From positions 3,136,001 through 3,200,000 of the forward strand of contig OZ244048.1 of NCBI GenBank assembly GCA_965215265.1: a DNA stretch of 64,000 nt, in the 5' to 3' direction. Of this stretch, positions 45,989-50,939 are shown piece after piece. The notes beneath the pieces are model-generated. The model worked only from the letters and a program-made list of their open reading frames with translations, did not search any database and had not been told where the DNA came from. The stretch is from Candidatus Poribacteria bacterium. GTDB lineage: Bacteria; Poribacteria; WGA-4E; WGA-3G. The position numbers were made by a program, and so were the translations under genes. How positions within the stretch are numbered: the stretch's first letter is position 1; each line of letters starts with the position of its first letter.

Positions 45989-46735
45989 TTAGCCATGAAT
46001 AGCATCAGCGAACTGTTTCATCAATTCAAAGGATCTATTTCCTTCAAGCACATTGCCTGTGACGATGAAATCGGCCCCTGCGTTTACTTTTTCGGAAGCG
46101 ATTTCTGGTGTTTGAATGCCGCCTCCAACAATCACTGGAATGCTCACTTGCGTTTTTATAACAGAGATAATCTCATTGGGTACCGGATGTTTAGCCCCGC
46201 TCCCCGCTTCTAAGTAAACTAACTGCATGCCCAGGTACTGGGCGGCGAGTGCATGTGGCACCGCAATGTCAGGCTTATCGCGCGGAATCGGCATCGTCCC
46301 GCTCATAAATTCAACAGCCGTACGGTTACCGCCCTCAATGAGTATATAGCCAGTAGGGATAGGTTCCAAGGCGTAACGCTGGATCCACGGTGCTGCTTTG
46401 ACCTGTTCAGCGATAAGATAATTTGGGTTGCGCCCACTGATGAGACTCGTATACAGAATCGCGTCTGCGTGTGGCGTGAGGTGCATCGAATCCCCTGGGA
46501 AAAGAACAATAGGAACGGATGTTTCCGTTTTTAACGCTTGTGCAACCGCGTGCAAATCGCACGTTAAAAAGCTCCCACCGAGTAAAATTATATCTGCGCC
46601 TGCCTCTTCAATGTCGCGTGCAAGTTTCGCGCACTTTGCAACCTGACAACTTTCCGGATCGATGAGAACAACATAGCCGGCGCTATATTTATCAAGTGTC
46701 TTATGGAAGTGGCTAAGAACCCAATCTGATATCAA
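45989..46735 (-). CDS. Geranylgeranylglyceryl phosphate synthase (GGGPS, group II-like)
   Basis: LIDP, LGGS, LFPG, ADAILYTSLISGRNP, PTGYILIEGG, YLEAGSGA, VGGGI and GADFIVTGN. Confidence 0.92.
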   Translation of the reverse strand: MISDWVLSHFHKTLDKYSAGYVVLIDPESCQVAKCAKLARDIEEAGADIILLGGSFLTCDLHAVAQALKTETSVPIVLFPGDSMHLTPHADAILYTSLISGRNPNYLIAEQVKAAPWIQRYALEPIPTGYILIEGGNRTAVEFMSGTMPIPRDKPDIAVPHALAAQYLGMQLVYLEAGSGAKHPVPNEIISVIKTQVSIPVIVGGGIQTPEIASEKVNAGADFIVTGNVLEGNRSFELMKQFADAIHG

Positions 46736-47004
46736 ATCTAAACTGTCCTTAGAGGTATACGCTTAAAGGTATTTCCGCTGAAATGCCGAGCGATTTTCAG
46801 GCGAAACGTGTCTAATCCGAGCACCGGCAGAGGATGTTGTTTTAACCCCGACTCAAAAACTCTACTTAATTATTTTACTACATTTCTCGTAAATTGTCAA
46901 ATTCCAGCAGTATTTAGGCGTGCTCTTTTACGAACGGATTGCTTGCATCCACTGGGCCGCATCGCTTTCTGCCGCTTATCACGCTGCCATCGCATGCCGC
47001 TATT

Positions 47005-48201
47005 TTAAAGCCAGCCTGCTAAAATCAAGTGGCGCAGCTCAAGAAGCAATTGCGGTTGATGTCTTAATATTATTGTAAAAACTCGTCTCAATGTCATTTC
47101 TTGGGTTGGGATTTGAGAGAGGGTTTCTGCCCATCCATCTATATCATCGTCGCTAAATTTGTACATCCTGTCTCGGATACGACAGATCGCTTTAAAATTT
47201 TTACCAATCTCGCTATCCCACCGTTTGGGGTATGCGCTGAGCACGTTTGTGGAGACATCCCTGCTGCGGATAGCTTCTACGGCGACTTCTGCAGCGAATT
47301 TTCCGGAGTGCATCGCGTTCGGAATACCGCCTCCAGATATCGGATCGCTGTGATGTGCAGCATCTCCCACAAGCATGATGCCGTTTCCGATAATTTTTGG
47401 AAGTCCTTCTCCTACTGGTACTGCACCGCAAACCAACCCTAAAATTTTACCCTCCGGGAATTTGCGTTTCACAAACTCATTTAAGTAGTCTATTGCGAGT
47501 TTACCACTTCTGCCGCCCGAAAGTGCACCGTTGATGCCAATCCCGACGTTGGCGATGTTATCGCCTTTAGGAAACATCCATACATAGCCCCGCGGCGCGA
47601 CTTGGCGTCCAAAATAGAGGTCAAAATATGTCGGATCTATATCAATGTCTCCAAGAAGGTACTGAGCACAGATACCGACATCGTGCAGCGAGTGGGTGGT
47701 ATCAATGCCAGCCCACCGGCCGACCTGGGATTCAACCCCGTCTGCTGCGATAACGACCTTTGATTTGCAGGTATATTCTCGCCCTGAATATCTAAACACA
47801 ACCCCGTCAACGGTGTCATCATCCGATTTGGTAACCTGTGTCACACGTGCTTTCACTATCACCTCTGCTCCAGCAGTTGATGCCATTTCTGCTATAACCC
47901 GGTCGAAAACTTTTCGCTCAAGGACGTAGCCCGGTTTTGGCAAATGAATCGGGACTGCGGTTTCGTTCGGTGAAAACAGGCGGGCCCCTGGAATTTTGCA
48001 CGACACCCAGGCCGGATGCGGTTGAAGAAATTTGCACAGATCCTCTGTGCCTATGCCCTCCGCTCAGCGGATAGGGGTACCGATTTCTTGACGTTTCTCC
48101 AGCAGTAGCACCCGCAAGTCGTTTTCAGCAGCGACTTTCGCGGCAATGGAACCGCCCGGGCCGGCACCGACAACAATCACATCGTACTCAGAATGTCTCA
48201 T
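47005..48201 (-). CDS. Geranylgeranyl reductase (digeranylgeranylglycerophospholipid reductase-like) with an in-frame TGA at codon 46; probable selenoprotein
   Basis: GGAGG RBS + ATG 48201 gives [17 protein letters not shown]...[11 protein letters not shown][TGA]AEG, in frame with ORF 47005-48006 ([30 protein letters not shown]). Confidence 0.85.
48034..48050 (-). promoter_or_regulatory. Putative bacterial SECIS hairpin
   Basis: mRNA GCACAGA-GGA-UCUGUGC begins 13 nt after the UGA (48064-48066), with G at the start of the loop. Confidence 0.6.
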
Positions 48202-48262
48202 TCTACCTCCTATGGAAACCGCTTTTCCAAATTATTCTAAAAACTGCGTCTTTTGTCTCTAA

Positions 48263-48481
48263 TTAGAAAAGACCTCGCCCTGGGTACTCCGGATAGTAGA
48301 TCTTACCATTTCGTTCCATAGCCAGTACACCAACCGGACAGCCCTTCACGCACTTCATACAATCAATACACTTCGGCTGATCTATTTTTAAGTGTGTATC
48401 TACTAACTCAATGATATTTTCTGGGCATACAGCAACGCAGGCACCACAATAGACGCAGAGTTCCTCGTTAATATGAATCAT
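48263..48481 (-). CDS. 2[4Fe-4S] ferredoxin
   Basis: CVYCGACVAVCP and CIDCMKCVKGCP; AAGGAG RBS. Confidence 0.93.
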   Translation of the reverse strand: MIHINEELCVYCGACVAVCPENIIELVDTHLKIDQPKCIDCMKCVKGCPVGVLAMERNGKIYYPEYPGRGLF

Positions 48482-49850
48482 TTTTAAGTTCTCCTTCGAG
48501 AGATAAAGGTTTGGCAACTGATTGGGACTGTTTATGCCGTACTAATTCATAGAGCAAAACGCCTGCGGCAACGCCTACATTGAGTGAAGATTGCCCGGCT
48601 GCCATCGGAATTCGGACCAAGTTCGGACATTGCTCACGCGTTTCTGCCGACAACCCTACGTTTTCATTTCCGACAATGACTGCAGCAGGGAGGTTAAACG
48701 TTGTGGAGTACAGCTCCTGTTCGGCACTCGCAGTTGCACCGAGTAGGAACCCGCCTGCTTTGTGCAATGTCTCAAGAACGGTTTGCAAATCTTTTGTATA
48801 GAACAAAGGCAAGCGGCCGACAGCTCCGCGTGCAGCACGAATACAGTTTTTATGAAAAGGGCTTGCTCCTTCGCCACTTAGTAAAACCGCGGATACACCT
48901 GCTGCATCGGCTGTTCGCAGTGTCATCCCTAAATTATCAGGATTCCCAATATTTTCCGTGATAAGCAACGTGCAGCCTGGGCTAAAATGAAAATTGAGTC
49001 CTCCGAATTTAGACAACGCATTGCGATAGGTGAGCTGCACCGAAGCAACGACTGATGGGACAGGCCGCGTTGTCGTAACCGAGCCCATCACGCCATCGCT
49101 CACTTGATAGTAGGGTAGATGCTCGGTATGGGCTTGTTTTAGGAGTGCAGCCCCGGCTCCGTGCTTCACAAGTTTTGGTGTATACAGCACTGTGTCAATG
49201 GGGAGCCCGTCATCAATCGCACGTTTCACTAACATCCGTTCTTCTACAATAAATCCGGAGTGTTCAAGTTTACCCTTCAAAGAAGTTAATTTGCGAAACT
49301 GCGATGTAATCGCATCCTTCCGTTTGGAAACAACTCGCTTTTCTAAGCGGGGGCTGCCGGTCAACGCCCCGCGTTTGATACCTCTATAAACCTGTTTTCT
49401 CTTCGGCTGAGCCTTGTCCTGTTTTTCGACCAGTTCTGCTGTTCGTTCGAATGAGGTTGTATGAATGTTGACAATTGTGCCTTCTAAGACTTCTGTTAAG
49501 GCATTGTACATCCATTTTGCTTGAACGTGAAACAGCCCGGTATATTGTCTTGGGAAAGTGAGTAGGAGCTCCCGCAAAGCCCTTTCGGTTGTTGCAGTGA
49601 GAGATACATAATACTCAGAAGCGGAATCTTGAGCTGAGGACACGTCTACCGGCGACATCAACATGACACCATCTAAATTCTGCCATCCTGCAACGCTAAC
49701 ATTATACGGAATGTGCCATTCACCGGTTTTGAAAAATGAGTGGTACGCTTGTTTGAAACGGTACACTGCGGCAGCATCCGTGCACTCTTTTTCCAAGAAG
49801 GCGATAACCTTGTCGTAGTTTAAGGGTTTAGCATCTATTAACATTGGCAT
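48468..49850 (-). CDS. TrmH/SpoU family RNA methyltransferase with a long N-terminal extension
   Basis: NPDNLGMTLRTADAAG, VGNENVG and IPM..SSLNVGVAAG. Confidence 0.85.
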   Translation of the reverse strand: MPMLIDAKPLNYDKVIAFLEKECTDAAAVYRFKQAYHSFFKTGEWHIPYNVSVAGWQNLDGVMLMSPVDVSSAQDSASEYYVSLTATTERALRELLLTFPRQYTGLFHVQAKWMYNALTEVLEGTIVNIHTTSFERTAELVEKQDKAQPKRKQVYRGIKRGALTGSPRLEKRVVSKRKDAITSQFRKLTSLKGKLEHSGFIVEERMLVKRAIDDGLPIDTVLYTPKLVKHGAGAALLKQAHTEHLPYYQVSDGVMGSVTTTRPVPSVVASVQLTYRNALSKFGGLNFHFSPGCTLLITENIGNPDNLGMTLRTADAAGVSAVLLSGEGASPFHKNCIRAARGAVGRLPLFYTKDLQTVLETLHKAGGFLLGATASAEQELYSTTFNLPAAVIVGNENVGLSAETREQCPNLVRIPMAAGQSSLNVGVAAGVLLYELVRHKQSQSVAKPLSLEGELKNDSY

Positions 49851-49969
49851 CCCAATCTGGGCCGGTTCAATCGGTTAGGCTTGCAAATCAGAGTGGCAGG
49901 TGCTTATTGCATTCCGCCGGCATAACTATTCCTGCGCATTTGGCTTATACTGGGCTCTCAAGTCCGATA

Positions 49970-50827
49970 CTAAAGTGTTCCGATATAAATTGCACCCAGT
50001 CCAATGAAGATGTCCCACTTCATCCAGCGTTGGATGAAGGCACAGTTTTCTTTAGAAGCATCTCTCCATAACCGAATTCCTAAGCAAATGAGGACCACGT
50101 CCACGCCAAGTACAACAGCGGCTAAATAGAGAGTGGAGTACCACCCATATAGATAAGGGATAGGACTAAAGAGGATGACAGCTGCCATGAAACCTAATGC
50201 TATTTTCACGGCGAGCAGAGGATTGAGAATAGCAAGTGTTTTCACGCCGTTTTTGATGTCGCCTTCTGTATCCTCAATGTCTTTTATAATTTCGCGTGGC
50301 ATGGTAAAAAGAAAAGCAAATATTGCCGGAATGAGCGTTCCTTTCACTGAATCGATCGCTATTCCGCCAGCAATAAAGGTTAACCCAGTTAAGCCGCTGA
50401 CAACTAAATTCCCGATGAACGGTGTACGCTTCAGCCAGAATGCGTAGCAAACAAGGACGATAGAAACCAGCACCGCAATACCTAATGCGTAAATATTGAT
50501 ACACGCGCCAAGTGCTATGCCGATTCCGATCAGAATTATGGCGAAAATCAGCGCAGCACAACGACGGAGTCTACCCGACGGAAGCGGTCTCCGTTTCCGG
50601 TTGATTCGATCTATGTTATAGTCACAGTAGTCATTTATAGCGTTTCCTGCAGAAAGCAAGAAAAGTGCCGAGAATGAAACCAACAAGAGCCGCATGTCTC
50701 CAAGGGTTGTCAATTGGCCTTCGTTAGCAAAGATACCGCCGAGGCATGCAGAAATAAAAGCGATGAGCCCGTTAAGCGGACGTGCTAACTCAACATAAGC
50801 CACGAAGGTTTTGTGTATCGCGTTCAT
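49970..50827 (-). CDS. UbiA-family prenyltransferase, digeranylgeranylglyceryl phosphate synthase (DGGGPS)-like
   Basis: ELARPLN, GNAINDYCDYNIDRIN..RPLPSG, LKRTPFIGNLVV and REIIKDIEDTEGD. Confidence 0.85.
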   Translation of the reverse strand: MNAIHKTFVAYVELARPLNGLIAFISACLGGIFANEGQLTTLGDMRLLLVSFSALFLLSAGNAINDYCDYNIDRINRKRRPLPSGRLRRCAALIFAIILIGIGIALGACINIYALGIAVLVSIVLVCYAFWLKRTPFIGNLVVSGLTGLTFIAGGIAIDSVKGTLIPAIFAFLFTMPREIIKDIEDTEGDIKNGVKTLAILNPLLAVKIALGFMAAVILFSPIPYLYGWYSTLYLAAVVLGVDVVLICLGIRLWRDASKENCAFIQRWMKWDIFIGLGAIYIGTL

Positions 50828-50939
50828 CGGACAAAACAAGCGTAAGCCGGACACAGCGTTTATCGCAGCAGATGGGTCCGGAATTTACAGCGGCAAATAT
50901 GCTCAGACTGGCAGCTCCGGTATGCTGTCCTCCAGGGGC

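Follow-up and report, generated by a model that had tools for sequence, protein, structure and literature searches.

A candidate selenocysteine form of geranylgeranyl reductase in an archaeal-type ether-lipid gene cluster of Candidatus Poribacteria

Known systems and the poribacterial gene

Archaeal digeranylgeranylglycerophospholipid (DGGGPL) reductases and geranylgeranyl reductases (GGRs) have been characterised from T. acidophilum (3oz2), S. acidocaldarius (3atq/4opd) and the Methanosarcinales. Behind the flavin of these enzymes sits an active-site cysteine (Cys45 in TaGGR, Cys47 in SaGGR; PMC6309074). It has been termed "essential for catalysis" (PMC10821996), and its role is described no more closely than as a "redox modulator" or as "involved in electron transfer" (PMC6309074, PMC12004948). 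Here we describe a GGR gene of a bacterium of the sponge-associated type, Candidatus Poribacteria, in which the codon at the position of this cysteine is an in-frame UGA, a candidate selenocysteine (Sec) codon. The gene is encoded on the minus strand at 47005..48201 of a stretch of 64,000 nucleotides (assembly GCA_965215265.1, contig OZ244048.1, positions 3,136,001 to 3,200,000), hereafter the window, to which all coordinates refer unless a genome position is given. Like the archaeal enzymes, the poribacterial GGR shows full-length homology and the shared motifs. The M. acetivorans GGR reportedly requires the ferredoxin of its own locus (PMC10821996), and a ferredoxin gene is likewise present in the locus studied here. 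The poribacterial GGR differs from the archaeal GGRs in its UGA-encoded active site, its bacterial host and its scores, which are under the archaeal equivalog cut-offs.

In the flavoproteins that have been listed as selenoproteins, Sec replaces a redox-active Cys near the flavin. These proteins belong to other families and act on sulfur substrates through thiol/disulfide or sulfide chemistry, whereas the poribacterial GGR carries the motif R-U-A-E-G and its chemistry would be the C=C hydrogenation of isoprenoids. They are FAD-dependent oxidoreductases like the GGR, and in Table 1 of a 2026 review of 119 prokaryotic selenoprotein families/subfamilies the only flavoproteins are of the CoA-disulfide-reductase type and the type III sulfide:quinone reductase type (PMC13188914). 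The decoding system resembles the SelA/SelB/SelC/SelD system of the fdhF type, with a UGA at the position of a redox-active Cys, a complete machinery in the genome, and a hairpin just 3' of the UGA in which a G opens a small apical loop at a spacing of 20 nt. What differs from the fdhF-type selenoproteins is the host family (GG-red-SF/PF22578), which is outside the 119 families listed in that table (PMC13188914).

As noted, Table 1 of the review has no GGR entry (PMC13188914). No selenoprotein GGR was found in the full-text literature, where listing under a generic name (e.g. "FAD-dependent oxidoreductase") in the supplements of surveys is possible, and none of the NCBIfam selenoprotein models matched the GGR product. 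The gene appears to be a Sec variant of a known enzyme family, served by a known decoding mechanism, that is missing from selenoprotein inventories and from public annotation. It is likely the first selenoenzyme of membrane-lipid (isoprenoid) biosynthesis, with Sec behind the isoalloxazine ring and long fixed in one order of Poribacteria within an archaeal-type ether-lipid cluster. The prokaryotic selenoproteome would thereby gain a family from an area, lipid/isoprenoid hydrogenation, that is without a listed selenoprotein.

Archaeal-type ether-lipid gene sets have reportedly been described in bacteria by Villanueva et al., for example in Ca. Cloacimonetes (FCB group). The poribacterial locus is similar in that a bacterium carries genes for a geranylgeranylglyceryl phosphate (GGGP) synthase (GGGPS, PcrB) and for a UbiA protein that resembles digeranylgeranylglyceryl phosphate (DGGGP) synthase (DGGGPS). 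It differs in its phylum, in the ferredoxin-GGR pair, in the Sec form of GGR in one order, and in that CarS was not found in the genome. Clustered archaeal-type ether-lipid genes (GGGPS, UbiA, ferredoxin, GGR) throughout Poribacteria are relevant to the "lipid divide" on its bacterial side.

The in-frame UGA, its hairpin and its conservation

The GGR frame starts at ATG 48201, which is preceded at a distance of 4 nt by a Shine-Dalgarno-like GGAGG (48206..48210, minus strand), and ends with a TAA at 47007-47005. With TGA read as Sec (U), it gives a complete coding sequence of 398 codons including Sec46, and U46, encoded by the TGA at 48064..48066 (minus strand), is the single non-standard residue. 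This agrees with the original prediction, made by a model from the letters and a list of open reading frames (ORFs), which had placed the start at this ATG with its GGAGG and had seen no other lesion in the frame. ORF calling with translation table 11 splits the frame into an ORF of 45 codons (ATG 48201..TGA 48064) and, directly downstream in the same frame, an ORF of 333 amino acids (aa) that begins at GTG 48006; as had been pointed out, the FAD-binding N-terminus is missed when the gene is begun there. The closest public protein records, of 283-346 aa, are likewise cut short N-terminally at the UGA. With such truncated entries, a pathway reconstruction of Poribacteria would count the GGR as broken, and reading through the UGA would correct public annotation to a full-length GGR. 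TGA is an ordinary stop in this genome, where it terminates 472 of the 2157 open frames of at least 300 codons, and a genome-wide recoding of UGA is thereby ruled out.

The product was assigned to the GGR family by Pfam GGR_cat PF22578 (1.2e-24, 86.4 bits against a cut-off of 27), with FAD-binding domains also matched, and by NCBIfam TIGR02032 GG-red-SF (229.5 bits against a cut-off of 158.8). Residues 5-393 align to 3oz2, the digeranylgeranylglycerophospholipid reductase of T. acidophilum (E 1.1e-73), and the protein is ~50% identical to Methanosarcinales GGRs. The motifs defined for the family in PMC6309074 and PMC12004948 (motif names also from PMC10821996) are present as GAGPGG (GxGxxG), RxxFD, YVWMFP (YxWxFP), LxGD and SGGGI (GGG). 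In the alignment to 3oz2, U46 falls on the Cys of SPVRCGEG, as anticipated from the archaeal-type Cys motif around the UGA; its position is that of TaGGR Cys45 and SaGGR Cys47, and the Cys with which it aligns is invariant across 20 full-length homologs (alignment A1). A second GGR paralog carrying Cys was considered and rejected: the sole other GG-red-SF-like match scored 125.8 bits, below the cut-off, and reads FKIGESL at the site, without a Cys.

A hairpin resembling a selenocysteine insertion sequence (SECIS), GCACAGA-GGA-TCTGTGC, lies on the minus strand at 48034..48050, beginning 13 nt after the TGA, where the original prediction had seen a stem of 7 bp. Its 5' arm spans 48050-48044, the loop GGA 48043-48041 and the 3' arm 48040-48034, which puts the start of the loop at a distance of 20 nt from the UGA. 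Taken over 45 nt from the UGA, the sequence folds with a minimum free energy (MFE) of -14.6 kcal/mol, compared with a mean of -7.99 in shuffled sequences (z = -2.81), and 3 of 200 shuffles were equally stable. Since the organism is a bacterium (Candidatus Poribacteria), a bacterial SECIS (bSECIS) within the coding region is the right model. The bSECIS consensus, as stated in the review, is a loop of 3-9 nt, a stem of 4-16 bp, a G in the first two loop positions, a spacing of 16-37 nt between UGA and loop and an MFE of -7.5 or lower (PMC13188914). The GGR hairpin, with its GGA loop of 3 nt, stem of 7 bp, spacing of 20 nt and MFE of -14.6, falls within this consensus.

The hairpin was compared across 41 TGA-containing loci of the same order. 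All seven pairs of the stem can form in 33 of them and six in the other 8 (in one of the 8 owing to an N); in the same register, nine loci with a Cys codon form only 1-4 of the seven pairs. The covariation test used 37 distinct sequences and seven pairs (259 cells) and 500 shuffles. Paired cells made up 97.3% of the 259, compared with 88.0% in shuffles, and changes on both sides of a pair were seen in 3 of the 7 pairs, in 26 cells compared with 9.1 in shuffles. None of the 500 shuffles matched the observed paired percentage, the number of double-change cells or the covariation score, and controls with a slid 3' arm were paired in 10.8-62.2%. A covarying hairpin in the TGA-containing orthologs, proposed as a check together with the original prediction, was thus found. 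The compensatory changes alter amino acids, from ACA/TGC (Thr...Cys) to GCA/CGC (Ala...Arg) or GCA/CAC (Ala...His). Third codon positions varied less inside the hairpin (mean entropy 0.56 bit over its six codons) than outside it (1.38 bit over 52 flanking codons), and the third position was invariant in 2 of the 6 codons within the hairpin and in 0 of the 52 outside. One of these two is the first G of the loop, which stays the same though its codon encodes E, A, V or P; the Leu is always CUG. These patterns of substitution indicate that the hairpin is selected as RNA.

Several results on the hairpin weigh against this reading. Two of the five covariation measures were not above shuffles, "pairs with a change on both sides" being attained by 259 of the 500 shuffles and "further pair types" by 359; the hairpin sequences are also related, so the cell counts given above overstate the number of independent events. 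An extension of the lower stem by 3 bp (columns 19-21 with 41-43) was unsupported, as pair 21-41 is unpaired in 21 of the 37 sequences and pair 19-43 never varies. Separately, two Cys-form loci of family f8 (L058, L062) were seen to have a different strong hairpin, which spans the TGT codon itself (GTGCYGA...GGCAC), with local MFE values over 60 nt of -31.7 and -25.6 kcal/mol.

The window is part of a one-contig genome of 4.83 Mb, estimated to be 95% complete, and the genes for Sec synthesis and insertion named in the original prediction, selA, selB, selD and tRNA-Sec, were all four found in it. The tRNA-Sec scored 80 bits against a cut-off of 47 and is called SeC(tca) by ARAGORN; selA scored 515.7 bits; selB was recognised by a SelB wing domain in a frame of 656 aa that ends ~50 nt before tRNA-Sec (L001/L011); and selD (L012, 359.6 bits) has itself one in-frame TGA, in the context VKCAG-U-ASK. 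All four exceed their family cut-offs. A mechanical scan of the genome for in-frame TGA followed by a hairpin returned 227 candidates, mostly obviously spurious, from which 12 were chosen by recognisable motifs and 10 of these tested with Pfam. Nine of the ten belong to families with known selenoprotein members, namely an FdhA-type molybdopterin oxidoreductase, four AhpC/TSA proteins, a thioredoxin-like protein, two HMA-domain proteins and a UGSC-family protein. A spacing of 13 nt, a stem of 7 bp and a GGA loop make the GGR hairpin a typical SECIS element for this genome.

Orthologs were collected from related genomes in two scans. The first covered the genomes of 41 relatives (E <= 1e-30) and found an ortholog in 20: in 19 the match was full-length, each with a single in-frame TGA, and in the remaining genome (G028) the copy is split. 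The TGA stands at the same codon in the orthologs, in the context P-[VIL]-R-U-A-E-G. The second covered 176 genomes of the phylum (E <= 1e-40), with a match in 56. In the order of the window (families f1-f4), 42 genomes matched and 41 cover codon 46, which is TGA in 41 of 41; these 41 are the 39 rows of the phylum scan with one TGA together with G028 and G094, obtained by pattern search. A TGA and a hairpin that return at one codon and in one register in 41 genomes go far beyond chance. Outside the order (f5-f11), 14 genomes matched and 13 cover the codon, none with a stop. The codon was read in 9 of these 13, as TGT in eight and TGC in one; L059 and L060 (G052, G051) fall outside the motif pattern, and for these as well as G055 and G043 only the absence of stops is known. 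A degenerate scan for the TGA-containing motif in 185,579 species genomes gave 40 stretches, 38 of them from Poribacteria and 2 from an "uncultured bacterium"; none was found in other named phyla or in archaea, within a scan that divergent motifs would escape.

In a maximum-likelihood tree of 57 proteins, all 35 Sec forms make up one clade (support 100/99), nested among poribacterial Cys forms, and the family structure within the clade mirrors taxonomy. The tree excluded two truncated rows, the split G028 copy, L019 and L045 (identical to L018 and L022 in the SECIS segment), and L059, L060 and L066 (not captured by the pattern). This topology fits one Cys-to-Sec event followed by vertical descent. 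The ratio of nonsynonymous to synonymous substitution rates (dN/dS; Nei-Gojobori, 34 Sec loci) was 0.04 over the 40 codons that precede the UGA and 0.12 over the 40 that follow it, with dS ~1.5. These values indicate that both sides of the UGA are translated and under strong purifying selection. The annotated product of 333 aa would thus be excluded as the functional form, since the upstream codons are under selection and encode the GxGxxG Rossmann motif.

The Sec machinery, the conservation of TGA in 41 of 41 genomes and the covarying hairpin support the prediction that codon 46 is selenocysteine, and we consider it very probable that the UGA is decoded as Sec and that this is a genuine bacterial selenoprotein gene. 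In the mechanism that we propose, the SelB/tRNA-Sec system would decode the UGA at 48066-48064, directed by the coding-region SECIS hairpin at 48050-48034, and the product would be a full-length, FAD-dependent GGR of 398 residues with Sec in place of the invariant Cys behind the isoalloxazine ring. Electrons would probably come from the ferredoxin encoded upstream, and the GGR would probably hydrogenate the C=C bonds of geranylgeranyl chains provided by GGGP synthase (PcrB) and the UbiA prenyltransferase, the outcome being saturated archaeal-type isoprenoid glycerol ethers. The change from Cys to Sec (TGT to TGA) would date from a single event at the root of one order of Candidatus Poribacteria and would have been maintained by selection from then on. 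Sec has a lower pKa, a higher nucleophilicity and reversible oxidation (PMC11431864). Stacked behind the flavin, it could tune the redox behaviour of the flavin or a proton/electron relay, and it could shield the site from irreversible oxidation in an oxic host. What we infer is the insertion of selenium, the ferredoxin as electron donor, the lipid acted on and any catalytic gain from Sec. If the proposal is true, the degree to which these symbionts saturate their lipids would be controlled by the supply of selenium. That selection has placed Sec at this site argues for redox or nucleophile chemistry by that residue; what the active-site cysteine of GGRs does in catalysis could be approached directly through the natural Cys/Sec pair, and matched Sec and Cys orthologs are available for enzymology.

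Gene neighbourhood and alternative readings

The genes of the cluster (45989-50854) are all on the minus strand, in the order UbiA, SpoU methylase, ferredoxin, GGR, PcrB, then grpE-dnaJ-prmA. The UbiA-family prenyltransferase is encoded at 49970..50854 (Pfam UbiA 6.1e-43). The SpoU-family RNA methyltransferase (48468..49850; Pfam SpoU_methylase 7.4e-34) lies between UbiA and the ferredoxin; it is found at this place in some relatives only and is given here as a neighbour, with no implication that it is a member of the system. The 2x[4Fe-4S] ferredoxin (48263..48517; Pfam Fer4_7 3.7e-16) is directly upstream of the GGR and has an uncertain start, with an internal ATG (MIHINEE...) 12 codons in. 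Directly downstream of the GGR is a PcrB-family geranylgeranylglyceryl phosphate synthase (45989..46735; Pfam PcrB 1.2e-44), which exceeds the GGGP equivalog cut-off (TIGR01769, 222.3 bits against 161.55).

The ferredoxin is directly upstream of the GGR in the loci of 37 of the 41 TGA-form genomes; of the other loci, L018, L019 and L025 lack it and L066 runs into the end of its contig. Other Poribacteria (P0082-P0099 and others) have ferredoxin-GGR fusions of 460-481 aa with an N-terminal 2x[4Fe-4S] domain and the Cys form of GGR, and such fusions are Rosetta-stone support for a partnership of ferredoxin and GGR. The ferredoxin is the probable electron donor of the GGR. PcrB adjoins the GGR in families f2-f4 and in the window's own genus, UbiA is upstream of the ferredoxin-GGR pair in many relatives, and many loci of either form, Sec or Cys, have PcrB and/or UbiA next to the pair. 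From the cluster of PcrB, UbiA and ferredoxin, the fusions and the M. acetivorans precedent, a ferredoxin-driven saturation of geranylgeranyl chains is suggested, and the gene neighbourhood makes an archaeal-type ether lipid of the DGGGP type, on balance, the probable substrate.

Some points stand against such a substrate. UbiA is closest to models of the DGGGPS type and scores below their cut-offs (PRK12884, 218.3/269; PRK12882, 200.4/296). CarS (PF01864) was not found in the one-contig genome at its estimated completeness of 95%, and a single G1P-dehydrogenase-like candidate, a weak one, was seen (124.8 bits against 413). The GGR itself is far under the DGGGPL-reductase equivalog cut-offs (NF041160, 274.7/780; NF041080, 174/580; NF041385, 98.4/700), which belong to lineage-specific archaeal models, and on these scores it was filed as a member of the GGR family only and not as a DGGGPL-reductase equivalog. 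It is possible, if doubtful, that the GGR is a true selenoprotein acting on another polyprenyl substrate, such as a quinone side chain, a polyprenol, a carotenoid precursor or a sterol-like molecule. Enzymes of the GGR family are promiscuous and have many paralogous functions (PMC10821996, PMC12004948), and PcrB persists in many genomes without a GGR ortholog at E <= 1e-40, which together with the sub-cut-off scores and the missing CarS would suit such a substrate. Against it, throughout the phylum the GGR gene is an immediate neighbour of PcrB and UbiA, whether it is of the Sec or the Cys form, and the nearest characterised relatives are the archaeal lipid GGRs mentioned above (3oz2, E 1.1e-73; Methanosarcinales, ~50% identity).

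For the decoding itself, a selenium-free read-through of the UGA is improbable. Here Cys or Trp would be inserted by a near-cognate tRNA, or Cys would be carried on tRNA-Sec when selenium is scarce, and the hairpin would be a general stimulator of read-through. The sequence cannot tell which residue is inserted, and Cys is tolerated at this position in all homologs. Against this, the Sec system of the genome is complete and in wide use, and the hairpin fits both the SelB-type consensus and the other SECIS hairpins of the genome; if Cys were intended, a one-base reversion to TGT or TGC would be simpler than a TGA with a hairpin in 41 genomes.

Decoding as Sec has also to be weighed against the reading that follows the annotation, in which the UGA is a true stop and the GGR is nonsense-mutated or N-terminally truncated, giving the product of 333 aa from GTG 48006 or nothing. 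Table-11 ORF calling yields exactly this product, and the nearest public protein records have the corresponding lengths of 283-346 aa. Three of the 41 TGA-form copies have extra lesions: G141 (L044) has a TAG at the invariant Trp65, and the copies of G094 (L067) and G028 (L034/L035) are frameshifted near codons 75 and 117. Many relatives have no ortholog at E <= 1e-40; in f1, a Sec-GGR ortholog at this threshold was found in only 15 of 111 genomes, while PcrB is kept in 104 of the 111 and in 130 of the 159 genomes of the order. The lesions and the missing orthologs together point to a Sec-GGR that has been lost several times, or else the three copies contain assembly errors. With PcrB retained at this low ortholog presence and with the three lesioned copies, the reductase would be accessory or replaceable; judged from these genomes, it is dispensable, repeatedly lost, or replaced by something beneath the threshold. 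A true stop is nevertheless very hard to reconcile with the 45 upstream codons, which are in frame, have a dN/dS of 0.04 (34 loci) and encode the indispensable GxGxxG FAD-binding fold, with the TGA kept at one codon in 41 of 41 genomes of four families, and with the covarying hairpin and the presence of the Sec machinery; we regard it as highly improbable.

A sequencing or assembly error can be dismissed, since the same codon is present in 40 other genomes, and since three other studies each supply a run (X5, X6 and X7; depths 4.2, 19 and 52) with contigs that span 48064-48066 unchanged. The X7 strain has a synonymous change at 48070, 4 nt from the TGA codon. Run X9 reached only 47609-47753, a part of the gene away from this codon. 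The possibility raised with the original prediction, that relatives and reads all have TGC or TGT, is thus contradicted by both the same-order genomes and these contigs.

Further in-frame TGA codons in the genome

The scan for TGA with a hairpin gave six other matches in the window, at ~1949, 3979, 21112, 22184, 23569 and 35474 (genome positions 3137949, 3139979, 3157112, 3158184, 3159569 and 3171474). They have no recognisable redox motif and look like chance matches in non-coding frames.

Three paralogs of 410-841 aa elsewhere in the genome have an in-frame TGA in a conserved DESC-U-GSGK motif with a hairpin 17 nt downstream (L129 1-1629, G000:C1:3112064-3113692; G000:C1:1018276-1019508; G000:C1:1710399-1712924). 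The one that was tested matched no Pfam or NCBIfam family, and these proteins may be an undescribed selenoprotein family.

A protein of 530 aa (L127 1-1593, G000:C1:3278917-3280509) has, besides a planctomycete-type cytochrome c domain and WD40 repeats, an HMA domain at its C-terminus in which the metal-binding motif is GMT-U-GAC. Two more small HMA selenoprotein candidates were seen at G000:C1:2910019 and 2910432.

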